Shown here: piece by piece, positions 40,606-45,416 of the stretch | Position numbering within the stretch: position 1 is the stretch's first letter | How the letters are laid out: each line of letters starts with the position of its first letter | Sequence record: OP778609 | DNA length: 64,000 bases | From: Escherichia phage A73 | Direction: 5' to 3' (one strand) | Made by a program: the position numbers and the translations under genes | The notes under the pieces: generated by a model | Told to the model about the DNA's origin: nothing | Database searches by the model: none | Seen by the model: the letters and a program-made list of their open reading frames with translations, nothing else

Positions 40606-40983
40606 CTATACTCCAAATGTGGATTTGATTTCAGCAATAACCTCATGCACATTGTTTTCGTTTACTTCAAATGTGTAGGACGTTGGTTTAAGGAACGTCT
40701 GAGGTGAAACATTAACAAAGAATTCAAATTCATCATTAAAAATTTCAAAGTATTTTCCAGGTGTTGATTCTTGGCTTTTGAAAACAGTACCATCTTCCAT
40801 AGTAACAGAAGAAACAGATTTTTCACCAAGGGTGTATGTTTTTAGCTCGTCAACAACGAAACTGGGGCCGTGGCGACGGAGTATTTCAACCATAGTTCGG
40901 TTAGCTCCACAAATACCAGTACGATTAATAAATAACTCTTCACACCGAGGATTGAGAATATAAGTTTTTCCTACTTGCATCAT
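40606..40983 (-). CDS. Acidic small protein, paralog family A (copy 3 in transcript order)
   Basis: 125 aa; shares M.[VI]GKTY.LN...HGP.F[IV]V...YFE...EF.FF...SNA.E[VT][IL].[LE]IK[SA]TF with the two adjacent ORFs. Confidence 0.5.
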   Translation of the reverse strand: MMQVGKTYILNPRCEELFINRTGICGANRTMVEILRRHGPSFVVDELKTYTLGEKSVSSVTMEDGTVFKSQESTPGKYFEIFNDEFEFFVNVSPQTFLKPTSYTFEVNENNVHEVIAEIKSTFGV

Positions 40984-40993
40984 TACAATCTCC

Positions 40994-41353
40994 TTATGCT
41001 AAGTTAAATGTGGATTTGATCAGGTCAATAACCTCTTGTGCGTTGCTCTCCGACACAGATACCTGAATAATTTTAAGGTCGCTGACCTCTTCAAAGTATT
41101 CGAACTCAGATTCACGAAGTTCAAAGTACATTGCCCCACAGCCCACACTGAATGAATCACACCCTACAGCACCATCTTCTGTTGTGATGTTATTAACATA
41201 CTCATCACCTTCGATCATGCTCATGTTGTTAACAATAAATCGTGGCCCGTGCTCATCCAGAAAAGAAACAATCTCGTGATTGTAACTTGGGTCAGCCTGA
41301 ATAAATTCTTCTACGAGTTTTGGATTAAGTTTATAAGTTTTTCCGACTTCCAT
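40994..41353 (-). CDS. Acidic small protein, paralog family A (copy 2)
   Basis: 119 aa; same motif set; own RBS. Confidence 0.5.
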   Translation of the reverse strand: MEVGKTYKLNPKLVEEFIQADPSYNHEIVSFLDEHGPRFIVNNMSMIEGDEYVNNITTEDGAVGCDSFSVGCGAMYFELRESEFEYFEEVSDLKIIQVSVSESNAQEVIDLIKSTFNLA

Positions 41354-41364
41354 CTTTGTTCTCC

Positions 41365-41739
41365 TTACGCCAGGTTAAAGGTAGCTTTAATCAAATCTAA
41401 AGTTTCTTGTGCATTACTACGAGAGACGGCAACCTGAATAATAACAGGGTCTTCATCTTCCCCGACTTCTTTGAAGAAGGGAAATTCACTCTCTGCAAGT
41501 TCAAAGTATACACACTTGTTACCTTCGCAGTCGTGAAAAACGTCACTACCTAAAGTACCATCTTCAAATATGACATTGTTAACATATGCAACATTATCAT
41601 AGAAGTGGGTGGTGTTGACAACAAATTTAGGACCGTGCTTATAAATAAGGTCAACCAATTCTTGATTGTAGCTAGGGTCCATATTGATAAAAGCTTTTTC
41701 TAAGTCTTTATTAAGAATGTAAGTTTTTCCGATTTCCAT
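41365..41739 (-). CDS. Acidic small protein, paralog family A (copy 1)
   Basis: Start at MEIGKTY behind GAGGAGAG RBS (ORF track 41826 runs through promoter and terminator). Confidence 0.5.
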   Translation of the reverse strand: MEIGKTYILNKDLEKAFINMDPSYNQELVDLIYKHGPKFVVNTTHFYDNVAYVNNVIFEDGTLGSDVFHDCEGNKCVYFELAESEFPFFKEVGEDEDPVIIQVAVSRSNAQETLDLIKATFNLA

Positions 41740-41768
41740 CTTTGCTCTCCTCTTCAGTTGATGGATAC

Positions 41769-41798
41769 ATCTTAGTTGATATAGACATGTCTTGTCAA
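41769..41798 (-). promoter_or_regulatory. Sigma70-like promoter with palindromic spacer element
   Basis: On - strand TTGACA-N18-TAAGAT; spacer contains perfect 10-bp palindrome AGACATGTCT (41783-41792); ~30 nt upstream of the copy-1 start. Confidence 0.5.
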
Positions 41799-41819
41799 TA
41801 ACTTTTTGCACATAAAAGA

Positions 41820-41842
41820 AAACCACCCTTCGGGGTGGTTTA
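41820..41842 (-). terminator. Rho-independent terminator after DNA polymerase exon 2
   Basis: On - strand AAACCACCCcgaaGGGTGGTTTtcttttatg: 9-bp stem plus T-run. Confidence 0.7.
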
Positions 41843-41847
41843 AATTA

Positions 41848-42198
41848 CTAGTGGCACGCCCCCCAGTTCATCCCTGTGAGGTATTCACCTGTTATGTGGA
41901 CAGGAGATTTCATCATTCGTGCTGCTTGCTCTACACAACGAACAACCATCTCTCCAACTGGACAATACATGATCGTGTAGATTCCATTCTCATCAGGATC
42001 ACACTTAAACTTCCCTTCTTTCACACAATGACCATCCAAGATCATTTTCTTAGCCAAGCAAGCTTCTACAAATTTCTTCGCGTCAGCTTCGTTGTCAAAG
42101 GTCCAGGTCTTCTTGAACTTGTGCGGTACTTCAAGCTGGTATTCATCCAAAAGTTTAACGAGGTCGTTACTCTCGCCCACATCATTACATGTTGCCAT
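41848..42198 (-). CDS. DNA polymerase (family A, T7-type), 3' exon
   Basis: 116-aa ORF ending ...GMNWGACH, like the family-A C-terminus; contains LLDEYQLEV, a candidate motif C. Frame is closed 2 codons upstream of the ATG; true exon start is probably near 42180. Confidence 0.65.
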   Translation of the reverse strand: MATCNDVGESNDLVKLLDEYQLEVPHKFKKTWTFDNEADAKKFVEACLAKKMILDGHCVKEGKFKCDPDENGIYTIMYCPVGEMVVRCVEQAARMMKSPVHITGEYLTGMNWGACH

Positions 42199-42954
42199 AC
42201 GTTTTCACATATGGATCGGACTATATCACCATCCTTTTCAGGATGCTCCCCATTTCGACGGCACTTGCTCGCCTACGCCTCTCGGCTAGTCTCTGAACGT
42301 TAGGACCATGTGTAGTCACAAGAGATGTGTGTCCAGTTTTTACGGATTTTTATGGACCTTACCACGTTGTAAGGATAACCCATATCCCGAATCTGTGCAC
42401 TTCCATAACCTTGCCCCAGGAAGTTGCAAATCTCTCTAACCTCTTCTTCGGTAACTATACTTCTGGCGTTATCAACCCCTGTTGCTGAACGACATTTATC
42501 AGCAAAGGTTTTCTTGATATTTCCACCACGAGTTGTCCATTGGAGGTTTGAATAGTGGTTATTCCTTTTGTCAGGCCACTTATGATCAACCTCCGGCAAA
42601 CCTTCAGGGTTTGGTACAAAACACTCTGCCACCAAAACGTGAACAGCCTTTGTAGTCGTCCTTTTGTTGAGATACAGACTTACAATAAGATACCCACGTC
42701 CATTATCAACTGCCGCCATTGGTTTCCCTCGACGACCTATAATGGTCCCGTCTTCATAAACCTTGTAACCGAAATAATCTTTATATTCCACATGATCCTC
42801 TTCGCTGCTGATTAACATAGTCTCATACTAACTCACACTTGAATTAATATCAACCTTAGTCTTCCAGCAATTAAAGGAGTTTTCGATGTGAGTTACCTCA
42901 CAAAGCCACAATGTTACTTATGGTAATAGATAATACGTCTAACGCCTTCATCAT
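42180..42954 (-). mobile_element. Group I intron with HNH homing endonuclease ORF (boundaries approximate)
   Basis: On the - strand RNA, in order: P-like AAUUGCUGGAAG (42861-42872), Q-like AAUCAGCAGC (42804-42813), HNH ORF, R-like GUUCAGAGACUAG (42286-42298), S-like GAUAUAGUCC (42218-42227). P/Q and R/S cores are complementary. Confidence 0.7.
42300..42818 (-). CDS. HNH homing endonuclease (intron-encoded)
   Basis: 172 aa; NUMOD4-like N-terminus (YFGYKVYEDGTIIGRRGK...GYLIVSL) and HNH_3-like core (KAVHVLVAECF...VDHKWPDKRNNHYSNLQWTTRGGN). Confidence 0.8.
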   Translation of the reverse strand: MLISSEEDHVEYKDYFGYKVYEDGTIIGRRGKPMAAVDNGRGYLIVSLYLNKRTTTKAVHVLVAECFVPNPEGLPEVDHKWPDKRNNHYSNLQWTTRGGNIKKTFADKCRSATGVDNARSIVTEEEVREICNFLGQGYGSAQIRDMGYPYNVVRSIKIRKNWTHISCDYTWS

Positions 42955-45250
42955 ACCAACCTTTCTTGACCAACTGCCAGTGCAGGAGGATACCCACCAA
43001 GTCAAACAGTGCAGCACCACCATTCTGCTGATAAGCATTAAGCAATGAGTGTTTGGAACGAGTGTAGATCTTACGTCCATCAAGACCGTAGATGAATCGC
43101 TTACCGTTAGCTTCCCAAAACTTCTCTAATGCTTCTTTACGACCTTTCAAGCCGATGTTGCTATCCCAGAATGCGTCGATTACTGCCTGGGCCTTCTCAA
43201 GAGTGATCCCCAGCATTGATGCAATCTTCGCTGCCTGTGCCCCGTACATAATTCCGTATGTCACACCTTTACCTTCACCACGAGAAACCTTCTTCCCTGC
43301 CGCTTTGGTATACGCTTCTGCGTTTCGGGAGTGAGCATCTCCAGATTCCATGATACGAAGATAAGCACCGCCATCGAAATCATAAGCGCCCCATGCTGCG
43401 ATCATACCTTCTAGGTTTGAACCGTCGATACCTACCTGATATTTACCCTCAGAGGCTCTGAATAGTTCACGCATCTCTTTACCGAGAAGAACTTTCTCAT
43501 CCGGCTTAGGTACGTTTGCTACGATCGTATGCTTACGACGACCTGTGTTAGTTATTCCACTATAACGGGCCGGAAGTTTACCGTCAACTCGTAGACGTGG
43601 ATGGTTAAGCCATCCGGTATCAACCTTCTCTTCTTTCAGCGGGTCAAGAACAGATCGTCGGTTACGTAAAGACAGCCATTTAACAATCTGTTTAGCCATT
43701 TCACCATCTACTCGCTCAAGGTTAGGGCAAAGACCCTGTTGATCCTTAAGTTGTGGAGATGTAGGTAATGCACGAGCTTTCTTACGGAAAAACTTGAACA
43801 TCTTTTCTTTATCTGACCACTGCTTAGGTGTGATCGCCAAGCTTTTCAGAATCAGATCACGATACTCCGTCTGATCCAAATCTTCAATGTATTGACGAAC
43901 AATCAGATCAACTTCACTATCGGGACGTTGTTTCTTGAACTGATCTTTAGTTGCATCCTTTGTACGCCAAATTGTTGGGACCCATCCTGCATCACGGATC
44001 AGGAACTTCTTAACGTCGTCCTGGTTACCAATACGCATCGGAATCATAATGTCCGGCATCTTTTGTTCTTTGATATCCATCAAAGCACGAGCCATATCTT
44101 CCGGCGGCAAAGGAACAAGCCCTTGCTGCTTAACGTTTTGTGCACGGATAAAATCACCCATTTTGGATTCGTCCTCTACACCGTGTTCAACACAATACTT
44201 GATCGCGGCAGCAGTAAGAGATCCGTCAGCCTTAAACGGCTTACTTGGTGCACCTTTAAATTCCAAGGCTTCCCAATTGATATTATAACCTAACTTCTCT
44301 AACCATTTCCAACCTGTACCGGAAAGAGATCCATCACCCTTGAAAGGTTTGGATGGGAATGTCGGTTGTGCTGATTTCGACATCTCTTTCTTCGGCAACT
44401 TAGGTTCAACCTCTAACTCAATGTCAGTCATCATCTTATCGATACGATCACGAAGCTTGAGTGCTTTTTCTTCATCAAATGAAACACCCTGAATTTCTTG
44501 CTCAATCATCAGGTAGTCAGTCAACATACCTCGACGCAGGGCATTCTTCCAGTTGATCATTTTATACTTCTTCTGATCTTTGTCTGTTTCATCCTTAAAC
44601 ATGAAGCGTTTATCATCCGGCATGGATTCACAGGAGATCTCTTTCATCAGAGCATCCCACACCATTTCGTTGATAATTACGTCTTCAATAATACGATCGC
44701 AATACTTCCAAAGTGGAAGGCCACGCCAATCTTCAATCGCCACTTTCTGGTTAGCTACTCGCATACCCCAAGCTTCAAGCCCGTGTGGCCCTACAGGCTT
44801 CATTTTACCTGTGACGGGGTTCTTTACCATCTCAGGACAACCGCGAGGCAGAGGGCGATCTGGATACAATGTACGGGACATTGAAAGTGTATCGAAGATG
44901 GTTACTTGTTTACCATTGATCGTCCCCATGCAACCAGGGTCTGCAAACATATCGTAAGTTGTTCCTAGCATCTTCTTAAACAACTGGAGGTCATAGCCGA
45001 AGATGTTGTGGATAGCAACTGCTTTAGGCTCGGTAACGAACCATTCGTTTAATTCTTCAAGGGTGCGGATCTTGAAGTTTTTACCTTTAGATTGGATAAA
45101 TTTAACAGCTTGATCGTAACCTTCTCGCTGTGGATCAAGAAAGATGTTCCAGTTATCTTTTTTGTACTCTTTAAACAAGATGCAGTGGATTAGATCAACT
45201 TCTGTCAACAGACCATTAGCTTCCGCATCTCCAATAAATAAGCCTTTCAT
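42914..45250 (-). CDS. DNA polymerase (family A, T7-type), 5' exon with 3'-5' exonuclease domain
   Basis: 778 aa; Exo I-like FIGDAEANGL, HGLEAWG segment, motif A-like QVGIDGSNLEGMIAAW, motif B-like RGEGKGVTYGIMYGAQAAK, GRKIY...NGGAALFDL; stops just before the expected motif C. Confidence 0.85.
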   Translation of the reverse strand: MKGLFIGDAEANGLLTEVDLIHCILFKEYKKDNWNIFLDPQREGYDQAVKFIQSKGKNFKIRTLEELNEWFVTEPKAVAIHNIFGYDLQLFKKMLGTTYDMFADPGCMGTINGKQVTIFDTLSMSRTLYPDRPLPRGCPEMVKNPVTGKMKPVGPHGLEAWGMRVANQKVAIEDWRGLPLWKYCDRIIEDVIINEMVWDALMKEISCESMPDDKRFMFKDETDKDQKKYKMINWKNALRRGMLTDYLMIEQEIQGVSFDEEKALKLRDRIDKMMTDIELEVEPKLPKKEMSKSAQPTFPSKPFKGDGSLSGTGWKWLEKLGYNINWEALEFKGAPSKPFKADGSLTAAAIKYCVEHGVEDESKMGDFIRAQNVKQQGLVPLPPEDMARALMDIKEQKMPDIMIPMRIGNQDDVKKFLIRDAGWVPTIWRTKDATKDQFKKQRPDSEVDLIVRQYIEDLDQTEYRDLILKSLAITPKQWSDKEKMFKFFRKKARALPTSPQLKDQQGLCPNLERVDGEMAKQIVKWLSLRNRRSVLDPLKEEKVDTGWLNHPRLRVDGKLPARYSGITNTGRRKHTIVANVPKPDEKVLLGKEMRELFRASEGKYQVGIDGSNLEGMIAAWGAYDFDGGAYLRIMESGDAHSRNAEAYTKAAGKKVSRGEGKGVTYGIMYGAQAAKIASMLGITLEKAQAVIDAFWDSNIGLKGRKEALEKFWEANGKRFIYGLDGRKIYTRSKHSLLNAYQQNGGAALFDLVGILLHWQLVKKGWYDEGVRRIIYYHK

Positions 45251-45416
45251 TTTTTCTCCTTCTTTTAAACTCCAACTAGACTAAAACAAAGCCTAGCCGG
45301 AGGTATGACCCTTCGGCTAGGTTATCAAAAGTGTCGGTATCCTTCATCAACAAAATAAAGTATTACCAAGATGGCAAACACGACACCCAAGAATATTAAT
45401 CCTAGTGAAGTTGGCA

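Follow-up and report, generated by a model that had tools for sequence, protein, structure and literature searches.

The DNA polymerase of the Escherichia phage W70, a member of the Vequintavirinae, is encoded by two open reading frames (ORFs) with an HNH-type ORF between them, and this locus raises the question of whether these are two separately translated subunits, or a single gene interrupted by an intron. The window, i.e. the whole stretch of DNA analysed, spans 64,000 nucleotides, and the polymerase, intron and HNH features all lie on its - strand. An earlier note on this DNA had proposed that a group I intron with an HNH endonuclease splits a T7-type polymerase gene at motif C. The splice junction, RNA fold, covariation and homology described below all bear this out, and the W70 polymerase gene is very probably one gene, interrupted by a mobile IA-type group I intron. 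Related phages were already known to harbour this intron family, of which the W70 copy is an ordinary further member, so far left unannotated.

The polymerase gene and its splice junction

The ORFs, and the exons and intron derived from them, are as follows:

42914-45250, - strand: 778-aa polymerase ORF from the ORF list, ending ...IIYYHK before the stop
41848-42198, - strand: 116-aa ORF from the ORF list, containing LLDEYQLEV and ending NWGACH
42920-45250, - strand: DNA polymerase exon 1, 777 codons, ending ...IIYYH, with the U of CAU as its last base
42148-42919, - strand: group I intron, 772 nt, starting AAGUAACAUUGUGG and ending ...AAACUUUUG, with a terminal G
41848-42147, - strand: DNA polymerase exon 2, 99 codons plus stop, beginning DEYQLEV and ending NWGACH
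41820-41841, - strand: hairpin and T-run resembling an intrinsic terminator, found by a terminator scan 6 nt past the polymerase stop codon

The ORF list agrees with the earlier description of a long frame stopping before motif C and a short one that contains LLDEYQLEV and ends in NWGACH. Exon 1 matches the Pfam family DNA_pol_A (42.8 bits), its ATG is preceded by a strong Shine-Dalgarno sequence (AAGGAG), and it aligns collinearly with the polymerase of phage UPEC06, whose gene has no interruption. Exon 2 begins with the motif C carboxylates, an Asp-Glu pair that is essential in family A polymerases.

The intron boundaries were set by comparison with the intron-less alleles of relatives. The range first given for the intron, 42180-42954, identified the right region, but both ends were off by about 35 nt: 35 exon 1 nucleotides were included, and the final 32 of the intron, corresponding to most of P9.1/P9.2 and the terminal G, were left out. 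Removing 42148-42919 yields an in-frame join, ...TAT TAC CAT/GAT GAA TAC... (here and below a slash marks the junction), and the spliced cDNA is predicted to carry TATTACCAT/GATGAATAC (in longer form ...ATCTATTACCAT/GATGAATACCAG), with YYHDEYQLEVPHK (also written IIYYHDEYQLEVPHK) as the expected junction-spanning peptide.

The conceptually spliced protein is 876 residues long, the same length as the uninterrupted UPEC06 polymerase, to which it is identical at 870 of 876 positions (96% nucleotide identity), and it is collinear with the polymerases of both close relatives UPEC06 and A7_1. It possesses the family A (T7-type) motifs A, B and C in order, including the HDE of motif C. Alignment of the spliced protein to family A polymerases, one of the checks named in the earlier note, gave a match of the C-terminal 336 residues to T7 DNA polymerase (E 1e-14), running through WVHDEIQV, equivalent to YYHDEYQL, with HDE aligned. 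His and Asp are the residues on either side of the junction, W70 YYH/DEYQL matching T7 WVH/DEIQV (H653/D654, E655).

Structure of the intron RNA

All core helices from P3 to P9, including the P3/P7 pseudoknot, were located in canonical order. The elements are, from 5′ to 3′ in the RNA:

42906-42923, - strand: P1, exon CCAU (42920-42923) and intron AA paired with the internal guide UUGUGG (42906-42911)
42887-42902, - strand: P2 hairpin, UGUGAG-GUAA-CUCACA, 6/6 pairs with compensatory double changes across relatives
42874-42879, - strand: P3 5′ strand; P3 has 3 compensatory pairs
42864-42869 with 42806-42811, - strand: P4, the P/Q helix, UGCUGG with UCAGCA
within 42806-42879, - strand: J4/5 (AA), P5 (42859-42861 with 42814-42816) and the P5a/b extension
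42804-42805 with 42297-42298, - strand: P6 5′ strand (GC) and P6 3′ strand
42790-42799, - strand: P6a 5′ strand AGGAUCAUGU, pairing with ACAUGGUCCU (42302-42311) in a 10-bp stem
42287-42291 with 42219-42223, - strand: P7, the R/S helix, GACUA with UAGUC, covariation seen
42277-42286, - strand: P7.1, GCC-GAGA-GGC
42257-42273, - strand: P7.2, 4 compensatory pairs
42246-42251, - strand: P3 3′ strand, in the 3′ half of the core
42230-42245, - strand: P8, covariation seen
42195-42214, - strand: P9, covariation seen
42179-42192, - strand: P9.1, compensatory changes
42158-42176, - strand: P9.2, compensatory changes; followed by the 3′ tail and terminal G 42148

The P-, Q-, R- and S-like segments from which the intron had been suspected are all present on the - strand, in canonical order, with P/Q forming P4 and R/S forming P7. 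The P-like segment is AAUUGCUGGAAG and the S-like segment GAUAUAGUCC; the Q-like segment AAUCAGCAGC corresponds to HNH codons 2-5 (AUG UUA AUC AGC AGC), and the R-like segment GUUCAGAGACUAG begins 1 nt past the HNH stop codon. The HNH ORF had been assigned to the P6 position, and it indeed lies in the P6a loop. The stem closing this 498-nt P6a region forms 11 pairs by duplex prediction (-17.3 kcal/mol), and equivalent stems with compensatory changes are found in CR9, SSE121, FV3, CB7 and 2L372D, each assessed one sequence at a time.

Both splice sites have the expected nucleotides. The splice-site U 42920 pairs with G 42909 in P1, a U·G wobble read directly from the sequence and present in all 12 aligned introns, while the last intron base is G 42148, and 13/13 introns end in G right before GATGA. 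A possible P10 is formed by CAUU (42910-42913), which is complementary to the first exon 2 bases GAUG (42144-42147).

A covariance-model search, also named as a check in the earlier note, returned a single Rfam family at E ≤ 0.01 in all 64 kb, namely RF00028, with a window-wide E of 1.2e-6; however, its 39.7 bits are under the gathering score of 50, a curation cutoff and not a biological feature. A default Rfam scan at the gathering threshold accordingly reported nothing in the window, the match being seen only with E-value reporting. The shortfall is due to the 497-nt insert in P6 and the divergent P5 arm, and orthologues at the same site score 73.7, 69.8, 56.7 and 54.4 bits against the same cutoff. 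The 3′ end given by Rfam, 42196 (the end of P9), was rejected, as the intron-less genes place the end 48 nt further, at 42148.

Covariation was counted in an alignment of 12 same-site introns, in which the ORF-holding P6a interiors were replaced by GAAA and the LAGLIDADG insert of phage PVP-SE1 was removed. Paired bases occupy 99.4% of the cells, and 27 of the 55 pairs show compensatory double changes, a count that takes in only the two outer P4 pairs, as MAFFT put the P4/P5 strands of the W70 type one column out of register with those of relatives possessing a bulged P4 base. None of 500 shuffles reached the observed values, and slid controls were 32-43% paired, with at most 7 pairs showing double changes. 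P4 and P5 were checked by separate folding, and the P4-P5 domain has the same minimum free energy architecture in 13/13 introns. Unconstrained folding of 42148-42298 recovers P7, P7.1, P7.2, P8, P9 and P9.1, with most of P9.2 also present in the centroid; the stability of this 3′ half relative to shuffles is moderate (z = -1.99).

P7.1 and P7.2, located between the 5′ strand of P7 and the 3′ strand of P3, are said to mark subgroup IA in the scheme of Michel and Westhof from 1990. With both present, the W70 intron is assigned to the IA type, either IA2 or IA1. One minimal member of the same-site family is locally similar to the T4 nrdB and Twort introns.

The HNH endonuclease gene

Two features were identified within the intron:

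42300-42818, - strand: HNH homing-endonuclease gene, 172 aa plus stop, with its body in the P6a loop
42825-42853, - strand: sigma-70-like promoter candidate, TTGATA-17-TAGTAT, inside the P5 extension and 7 nt upstream of the HNH start codon

The first HNH codons overlap the P5 3′ strand, J5/4, the P4 3′ strand and P6. The sole PDB match of the encoded protein is I-HmuI (1U3E, E 3.5e-5), with which its HNH core DH...NN...N aligns, and it matches the HNH endonuclease group PHROG 59 (E 1e-33), whereas the Pfam HNH_3 score (23.9 bits) is just below the cutoff of 24.8. It shares 127 of 172 residues with its homologue from phage CR9, with a pN/pS of 0.23. From these comparisons it is a predicted I-HmuI-like HNH endonuclease under purifying selection.

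The promoter candidate matches the consensus at 9 of 12 positions, which is not significant taken alone. The same element occupies this place in 10/10 introns that have an ORF or descend from one that did, and PVP-SE1 has it annotated as a promoter; the three minimal ORF-less introns lack it.

Distribution and relatives of the intron

The intron is carried by W70, LTH01 and A5-4, while UPEC06 and A7_1, which are close relatives, lack it. For A7_1 only the exon 1 figures and the junction were used, since extra genes make the global alignment fail downstream of the splice site. Among the three carriers the intron is identical at 771 of 772 positions, while exon 1 is only 97.3-97.4% identical. 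The surrounding block of perfect identity extends 447 nt (LTH01) or 156 nt (A5-4) upstream, and 20 nt downstream. That introns 99.9% identical lie in exons differing by 2.6% argues for recent transfer, but the identity block could also come from ordinary recombination between co-infecting phages.

The P1 hexamer TACCAT precedes the insertion site in all 13 intron-containing alleles and in none of the five intron-less ones, examples of which, differing synonymously, are TATCAT/GATGAA (UPEC06 type) and TACCAC/GATGAA (CR3 type). Its avoidance by intron-less alleles could reflect selection for resistance to the endonuclease, or against intron acquisition.

The same site and core occur in introns annotated in other public Vequintavirinae genomes, for example WalterGehring (BASEL collection, MZ501111), PVP-SE1, CR9 and SSE121. 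The HNH gene of W70 has homologues in CR9 and SSE121. In PVP-SE1 the cargo is a LAGLIDADG gene, placed in another loop by an insert of 619 nt that follows the 5′ strand of P7. Unlike that of W70, the same-site introns of VLCpiM5b (343 nt), JEP1 (328 nt) and PDX (276 nt) have no ORF, as is the case for K470 (254 nt), and in SSE121 the frame from the shared HNH start codon stops after 9 codons. This early stop, together with the ORF-less versions, indicates that endonuclease genes decay in this family.

The W70 junction aligns with T7 H653/D654, the motif C His-Asp boundary, the position of site 881 in E. coli Pol I numbering. The introns of phages PhiI and W31 reportedly belong to subgroup IA2, with an HNH ORF in P6a (attributed to Bonocora and Shub, 2004, J Bacteriol 186:8153). 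They would share with W70 the polymerase site and the HNH-in-P6a layout, while the phages carrying them are T7-like podoviruses of another family and W70 belongs to the Vequintavirinae. They are placed in a T7-type family A polymerase at "site 881" of the E. coli Pol I numbering (PMC3428280). I-HmuI is an HNH homing endonuclease encoded by the polymerase intron of SPO1. Introns of this type also belong to group I, interrupt a phage polymerase gene of family A and encode an HNH nicking endonuclease of similar size (174 versus 172 aa); however, they are located at site 674, in the fingers domain, and not at 881 in motif C (PMC3428280), their phages have Gram-positive hosts, and the similarity between the enzymes is modest.

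The closest characterized relative is found in Pectobacterium phage vB_PatM_CB7 (Buttimer et al., 2020), where an intron with the HNH gene CB7_50, between the polymerase ORFs CB7_51 and CB7_49, splices in vivo, as demonstrated by RT-PCR and Sanger sequencing; no RNA structure is given there (PMC7344957). CB7 also belongs to the Vequintavirinae, and its intron is in the same gene, at an identical insertion site (...TACCAT/AAGTAACATTGTGG ... TTTTG/GATGAA). Over the 27% of the W70 intron that could be matched, the two ribozyme cores show 92.9% identity. In contrast, the CB7 HNH gene is shorter (127 aa), starts with MGNQQ and uses another frame of the same P4 strand; the CB7 intron measures 687 nt, with a longer P5 arm, against 772 nt in W70, and CB7 possesses a second intron about 340 nt upstream that W70 lacks.

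Alternative explanations

The two ORFs could in principle be separately translated subunits of a split polymerase, whose gene was fractured by a free-standing HNH endonuclease, as described for Aeh1 nrdA/mobE (cited in PMC7344957). The GenBank annotation of W70, with two "DNA-directed DNA polymerase" CDSs and a hypothetical protein, reads in this way, and another HNH insertion in CB7, CB7_245, gave no splicing in RT-PCR (PMC7344957). However, the spacer is a complete group I core kept by compensatory changes, and the orthologous CB7 intron does splice. Moreover, the ATG of the 116-aa ORF (42198) sits within helix P9, and its first 17 codons are intron sequence, missing from intron-less polymerases. 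No Shine-Dalgarno sequence was found before this ATG, although neighbouring genes have AAGGAG or GGAGA, and this absence of a ribosome-binding site argues against separate translation of exon 2. I therefore consider two subunits extremely improbable, and an Aeh1-type fracture was rejected on the completeness of the ribozyme and the missing Shine-Dalgarno sequence. An intein was also rejected, as the unspliced frame stops two codons into the insert (CAU/AAG UAA), as was a group II intron, for which there was no supporting evidence.

With a group I intron retained as the preferred reading, its activity may still be questioned. The ribozyme could be a relic, one that needs a host or phage protein to splice, or splices too poorly to matter; the sub-threshold Rfam score and the only moderate stability of the 3′ half would fit this. 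Yet the core pairings and both splice-site nucleotides are all intact, the Rfam cutoff is exceeded by orthologues whose core hardly differs, one of which splices in vivo, and W70 is a viable isolate whose only polymerase motif C spans the intron, so that a relic is most unlikely. Loss of mobility deserves some more thought, but is also unlikely: here the ribozyme would splice while the HNH protein is inactive or non-homing, and vertical loss together with general recombination would explain why the intron is patchily distributed. It would account for the ORF-less relatives and the decayed SSE121 frame, as well as the marginal HNH_3 score. Against it, the W70 ORF is intact and of nearly the length of I-HmuI, with an aligned DH...N...N core, its pN/pS is low relative to a homologue 74% identical in protein, and the near-identity of the intron in three phages stands out against their diverged exons.

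Proposed mechanism

For an active, mobile intron, the following pathway can be proposed. Exon 1, intron and exon 2 would be transcribed together, and the intron RNA would fold into the P1-P9 core with P7.1/P7.2 and P9.1/P9.2. An external guanosine would then attack after U 42920, held by the guide UUGUGG, and the freed exon 1 would attack after G 42148, with P10 aligning exon 2. The ligated mRNA would encode the 876-aa T7-type family A polymerase with its motif C (YYH-DE) restored, whereas the unspliced product would end without the motif C Asp-Glu. By analogy with I-HmuI, I-BasI and I-PfoP3I, in mixed infections the endonuclease may nick or cut polymerase genes close to where the intron inserts, and repair would then copy the intron, along with adjoining exon sequence, into genomes that lack it.

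More speculatively, the endonuclease is probably made from intron-internal transcripts unable to form the ribozyme, because its start and first six codons lie in P5/P4/P6 and a promoter-like element is located just upstream. The ribozyme core may even have a second role, as a reusable platform from which endonuclease genes are expressed, with cargo swapped on a fixed chassis, an idea I regard as less likely than not. The start codon, in P5/J5-4/P4, would be hidden in the folded pre-mRNA and exposed only in intron-internal transcripts. HNH genes of two dissimilar types, that of W70 (MLISS...) and that of CB7 and 2L372D (MGNQQ...), have their start codons at one and the same position in the core, in different frames of a shared P4 strand, and in PVP-SE1 the same core hosts its LAGLIDADG gene in another loop.

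Implications for annotation

While the W70 case leaves knowledge of group I introns unchanged, it bears on the public records. In those of W70, LTH01 and A5-4 the locus appears as a hypothetical protein and two "DNA polymerase" fragments, with no intron annotated in that of W70; it should instead be given as a group I intron that encodes an HNH homing endonuclease, within the gene for one 876-aa polymerase (join 45250..42920, 42147..41848). The polymerase gene region should also be avoided for building trees, given the block of identity that surrounds the intron. The same-site family occurs in several phage groups, always at one codon boundary of the catalytic site, and combines a conserved core with at least four states of cargo; it could serve for the study of how endonuclease genes invade and leave introns. 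The WalterGehring record already gives the polymerase CDS as a join of two pieces on either side of a "putative homing endonuclease" (method in PMC8594841).

The polymerase gene is interrupted within motif C

Over positions 41700–45300, the window matches Escherichia phage W70 (OP778610.1, Vequintavirinae) at 99.9% identity, and a window coordinate plus 1 gives the record coordinate. In that record, a 'hypothetical protein' separates two CDS labelled 'DNA-directed DNA polymerase', and no intron is annotated. The three ORFs listed in the earlier note were all found on the minus strand:

45250–42914, minus, 778-aa polymerase ORF, C-terminus IIYYHK-stop
42818–42300, minus, 172-aa ORF, the HNH gene
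42198–41848, minus, 116-aa ORF, containing LLDEYQLEV, C-terminus NWGACH

I set the intron boundaries by comparison with the uninterrupted polymerase genes of two close relatives, UPEC06 and A7_1. Without 42919–42148 (772 nt), W70 has a 2631-nt ORF, equal in length to that of UPEC06 (96.2% DNA identity, 870 of 876 residues identical). The observation in the earlier note is real and its interpretation as a group I intron is right, but the interval it proposed, 42180–42954, is shifted, taking 35 nt of exon 1 and omitting the final 32 nt of the intron; the corrected interval is 42919–42148. The spliced junction reads ...TAT TAC CAT/GAT GAA TAC..., with U the final exon-1 base and G the final intron base. 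Alignment of the conceptually spliced protein, a check suggested in that note, matched the C-terminal region to T7 DNA polymerase (E 1e-14) with motif C restored: YYH/DEYQL of W70 lies over WVH653/D654E655IQV of T7, so that the intron separates the motif C His from its catalytic Asp neighbour, which correspond to site 881 of E. coli Pol I.

Read without splicing, the gene stops at AAG UAA, two codons inside the intron, and this in-frame stop excludes an intein. The two polymerase fragments are unlikely to be translated separately: the 116-aa ORF begins with 17 codons of intron sequence, and its ATG falls within P9 and lacks a ribosome-binding site such as the AAGGAG or GGAGA of neighbouring genes.

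Structure of the ribozyme

A default Rfam scan of the window reported no family. With E-value reporting, the covariance model RF00028 (group I catalytic intron) matched minus-strand positions 42929–42196 across its whole length (39.7 bits, E 1.2e-6); no other Rfam family reached E ≤ 0.01 anywhere in the 64-kb window. The P-, Q-, R- and S-like strings previously proposed were all located, P/Q forming helix P4 and R/S helix P7. All coordinates below were verified against the sequence.

Structural elements of the W70 intron (all minus strand)
42923–42918 (exon CCAU + AA) with 42911–42906 (UUGUGG), P1, including the U·G splice pair
42913–42910 (CAUU) with exon-2 42147–42144 (GAUG), P10
42902–42887, P2
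42879–42874 (CUCCUU) with 42251–42246 (GGGGAG), P3
42869–42864 (UGCUGG) with 42811–42806 (UCAGCA), P4
AA on each side, J4/5 and J5/4
42861–42859 (GAC) with 42816–42814 (GUU), P5, plus extended P5a/b arm
42805–42804 (GC) with 42298–42297 (GU), P6
42799–42790 (AGGAUCAUGU) with 42311–42302 (ACAUGGUCCU), P6a, 10-bp stem closing the 498-nt ORF-bearing region
42291–42287 (GACUA) with 42223–42219 (UAGUC), P7
42286–42277, P7.1
42273–42257, P7.2
42245–42230, P8
42214–42195, P9
42192–42179, P9.1
42176–42158, P9.2
42148, terminal G

P7.1 and P7.2, together reportedly Michel and Westhof's 1990 criterion for the IA type, mark the W70 intron as IA. A minimal same-site intron is locally similar to the T4 nrdB and Twort introns, which is compatible with membership of the IA2 phage introns. 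Unconstrained folding of the 3' 151 nt recovered P7, P7.1, P7.2, P8, P9 and P9.1, the centroid adding most of P9.2, with a z-score of only −1.99.

A family of introns at the same site

A BLAST search with the W70 intron found same-site introns in many phages. I extracted 13, all bounded by ...TACCAT/A[AG][AG]TAA[CA]ATTGTGG and ...G/GATGA.

Length and cargo of same-site introns
W70: 772 nt, HNH (172 aa)
CR9, SSE121: 772, 771 nt, homologues of the W70 HNH gene
FV3, WalterGehring, Mangalyan: 842–843 nt, related HNH
CB7: 687 nt, different HNH (127 aa)
Aeromonas phage 2L372D: 740 nt, different HNH (130 aa)
PVP-SE1: 919 nt, LAGLIDADG
VLCpiM5b, JEP1, PDX: 343, 328, 276 nt, ORF-less
Vibrio phage K470: 254 nt, ORF-less

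Four exceed the Rfam gathering score (JEP1 73.7, VLCpiM5b 69.8, CR9 56.7 and PVP-SE1 54.4 bits). Twelve cores were aligned with MAFFT, ORF interiors having been trimmed beforehand. The proposed structure gives standard pairs in 99.4% of 653 cells and changes on both sides in 27 of 55 pairs, values reached in 0/500 shuffles; sliding the 3' partners by 1–3 columns left 32–43% paired and ≤7 double-change pairs. Compensatory changes occur in each of P2, P3, P7, P7.2, P8, P9, P9.1 and P9.2, and the minimum free energy architecture of the P4–P5 domain is the same in 13/13 introns. A long P6a stem closes the ORF loop in every ORF-bearing intron, with compensatory changes between W70, CR9 and SSE121. 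In PVP-SE1 (601–1519 of locus L007), the LAGLIDADG gene lies in a 619-nt insert directly after the P7 5' strand, outside P6a, so that cargo was gained at two loops of one ribozyme.

Splicing of the CB7 intron, whose HNH gene CB7_50 lies between the polymerase ORFs CB7_51 and CB7_49, was established by RT-PCR and Sanger sequencing (Buttimer et al., 2020; PMC7344957). This intron occupies exactly the W70 insertion site, and 27% of the W70 intron could be matched to its core, at 92.9% identity. Such introns were annotated by comparative genomics in the BASEL collection (PMC8594841), and the WalterGehring polymerase CDS is annotated as a two-piece join. PMC3428280 places polymerase introns of the T7-like phages PhiI and W31 at 'site 881' (E. 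coli Pol I numbering). The rV5 paper mentions introns solely in the terminase gene (PMC3606486). The W70 intron is thus an unannotated representative of a family that is already known and has experimental support, to which the present analysis makes modest additions: cargo swapping, an embedded candidate promoter and start codon, and a P1-linked codon bias.

In SSE121 (L009 1–606) and CB7 (L004 1957–3006), the polymerase gene has a second HNH-containing intron ∼340 nt further upstream, which sets off an internal exon of 336–351 nt; W70 is uninterrupted at that position. Inside the P6 arm of the ORF-less VLCpiM5b intron (L005, ∼701–785) lies a ∼85-nt element, 74–90% identical to unannotated intergenic spots in many unrelated phages (Proteus phages, Klebsiella jumbo phage K64-1, Erwinia, Rhizobium, Pseudomonas and T4-like phages); it has no Rfam match at the gathering threshold, and could be a small mobile or structured RNA element. 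Fourteen GenBank records within MG065635–MG065690 ('Campylobacter phage' C5, C7, C9, A112b, A147, D1 and others) contain rV5-like coliphage polymerase and intron sequences, and their Campylobacter jejuni host labels look wrong.

The HNH endonuclease and its proposed expression

The sole PDB match of the 172-aa ORF is I-HmuI (1U3E, 174 aa; E 3.5e-5), with the DH...NN...N block aligned; it matches PHROG 59 'HNH endonuclease' (E 1e-33), and scores 23.9 bits against Pfam HNH_3, slightly below the 24.8 cutoff. Compared with its CR9 homologue (127/172 identical, synonymous divergence near-saturated), pN/pS is 0.23, indicating purifying selection on the protein. Readings in which the endonuclease is dead, or the ribozyme depends on a protein, are both disfavoured.

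The HNH AUG consists of the 'AU' of the P5 internal loop and the first G of the P5 3' strand, and codons 2–6 span J5/4, the P4 3' strand and P6. The HNH genes of CB7 and 2L372D also start just 5' of the P4 strand, in another frame (MGNQQ). The P5 arm holds a sigma-70-like TTGATA-17-TAGTAT (42853–42825, minus), which is unremarkable alone (score 9/12; 4 sites found versus 2.7 expected). This element occupies the same place in 10/10 introns with an ORF or derived from ORF carriers, is absent from the three minimal introns, and is annotated as a promoter in the PVP-SE1 record. The enzyme is probably translated from intron-internal transcripts, in which the P4 and P5 5' strands would be missing.

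Insertion-site alleles and signs of mobility

Among the five closest genomes, the intron is present in W70, LTH01 and A5-4, and absent from UPEC06 and A7_1. The three carriers share 771/772 intron positions, while exon 1 differs at 60–63 of 2331. On the upstream side of the intron, perfect identity continues for 447 nt in LTH01 and 156 nt in A5-4; on the downstream side it continues for 20 nt. Such a block would be the expected trace of homing with co-conversion, although general recombination could also leave it.

Relative to UPEC06, W70 has 8 synonymous differences in the 28 nt directly upstream (42920–42947), then none for ∼250 nt. The junction is TACCAT, which supplies the P1 strand and splice-site U, in 13/13 intron-containing alleles and 0/5 of the intron-less alleles examined, which have TATCAT or TACCAC. 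P1 constraint, co-conversion or endonuclease resistance are possible explanations for these differences.

Neighbouring genes

Three small paralogous genes in tandem (40606–41739, minus; 124, 119 and 125 aa) immediately follow polymerase exon 2 and its terminator-like hairpin. The first shares 54% identity with the second and 36% with the third, and ORF lists probably give it the wrong start, GTG 41826 instead of ATG 41739, which has a GAGGAG ribosome-binding site. Compared with W70 and UPEC06, A7_1 (L002 3008–4533) has four extra small hypothetical ORFs between the polymerase stop and the next conserved gene.
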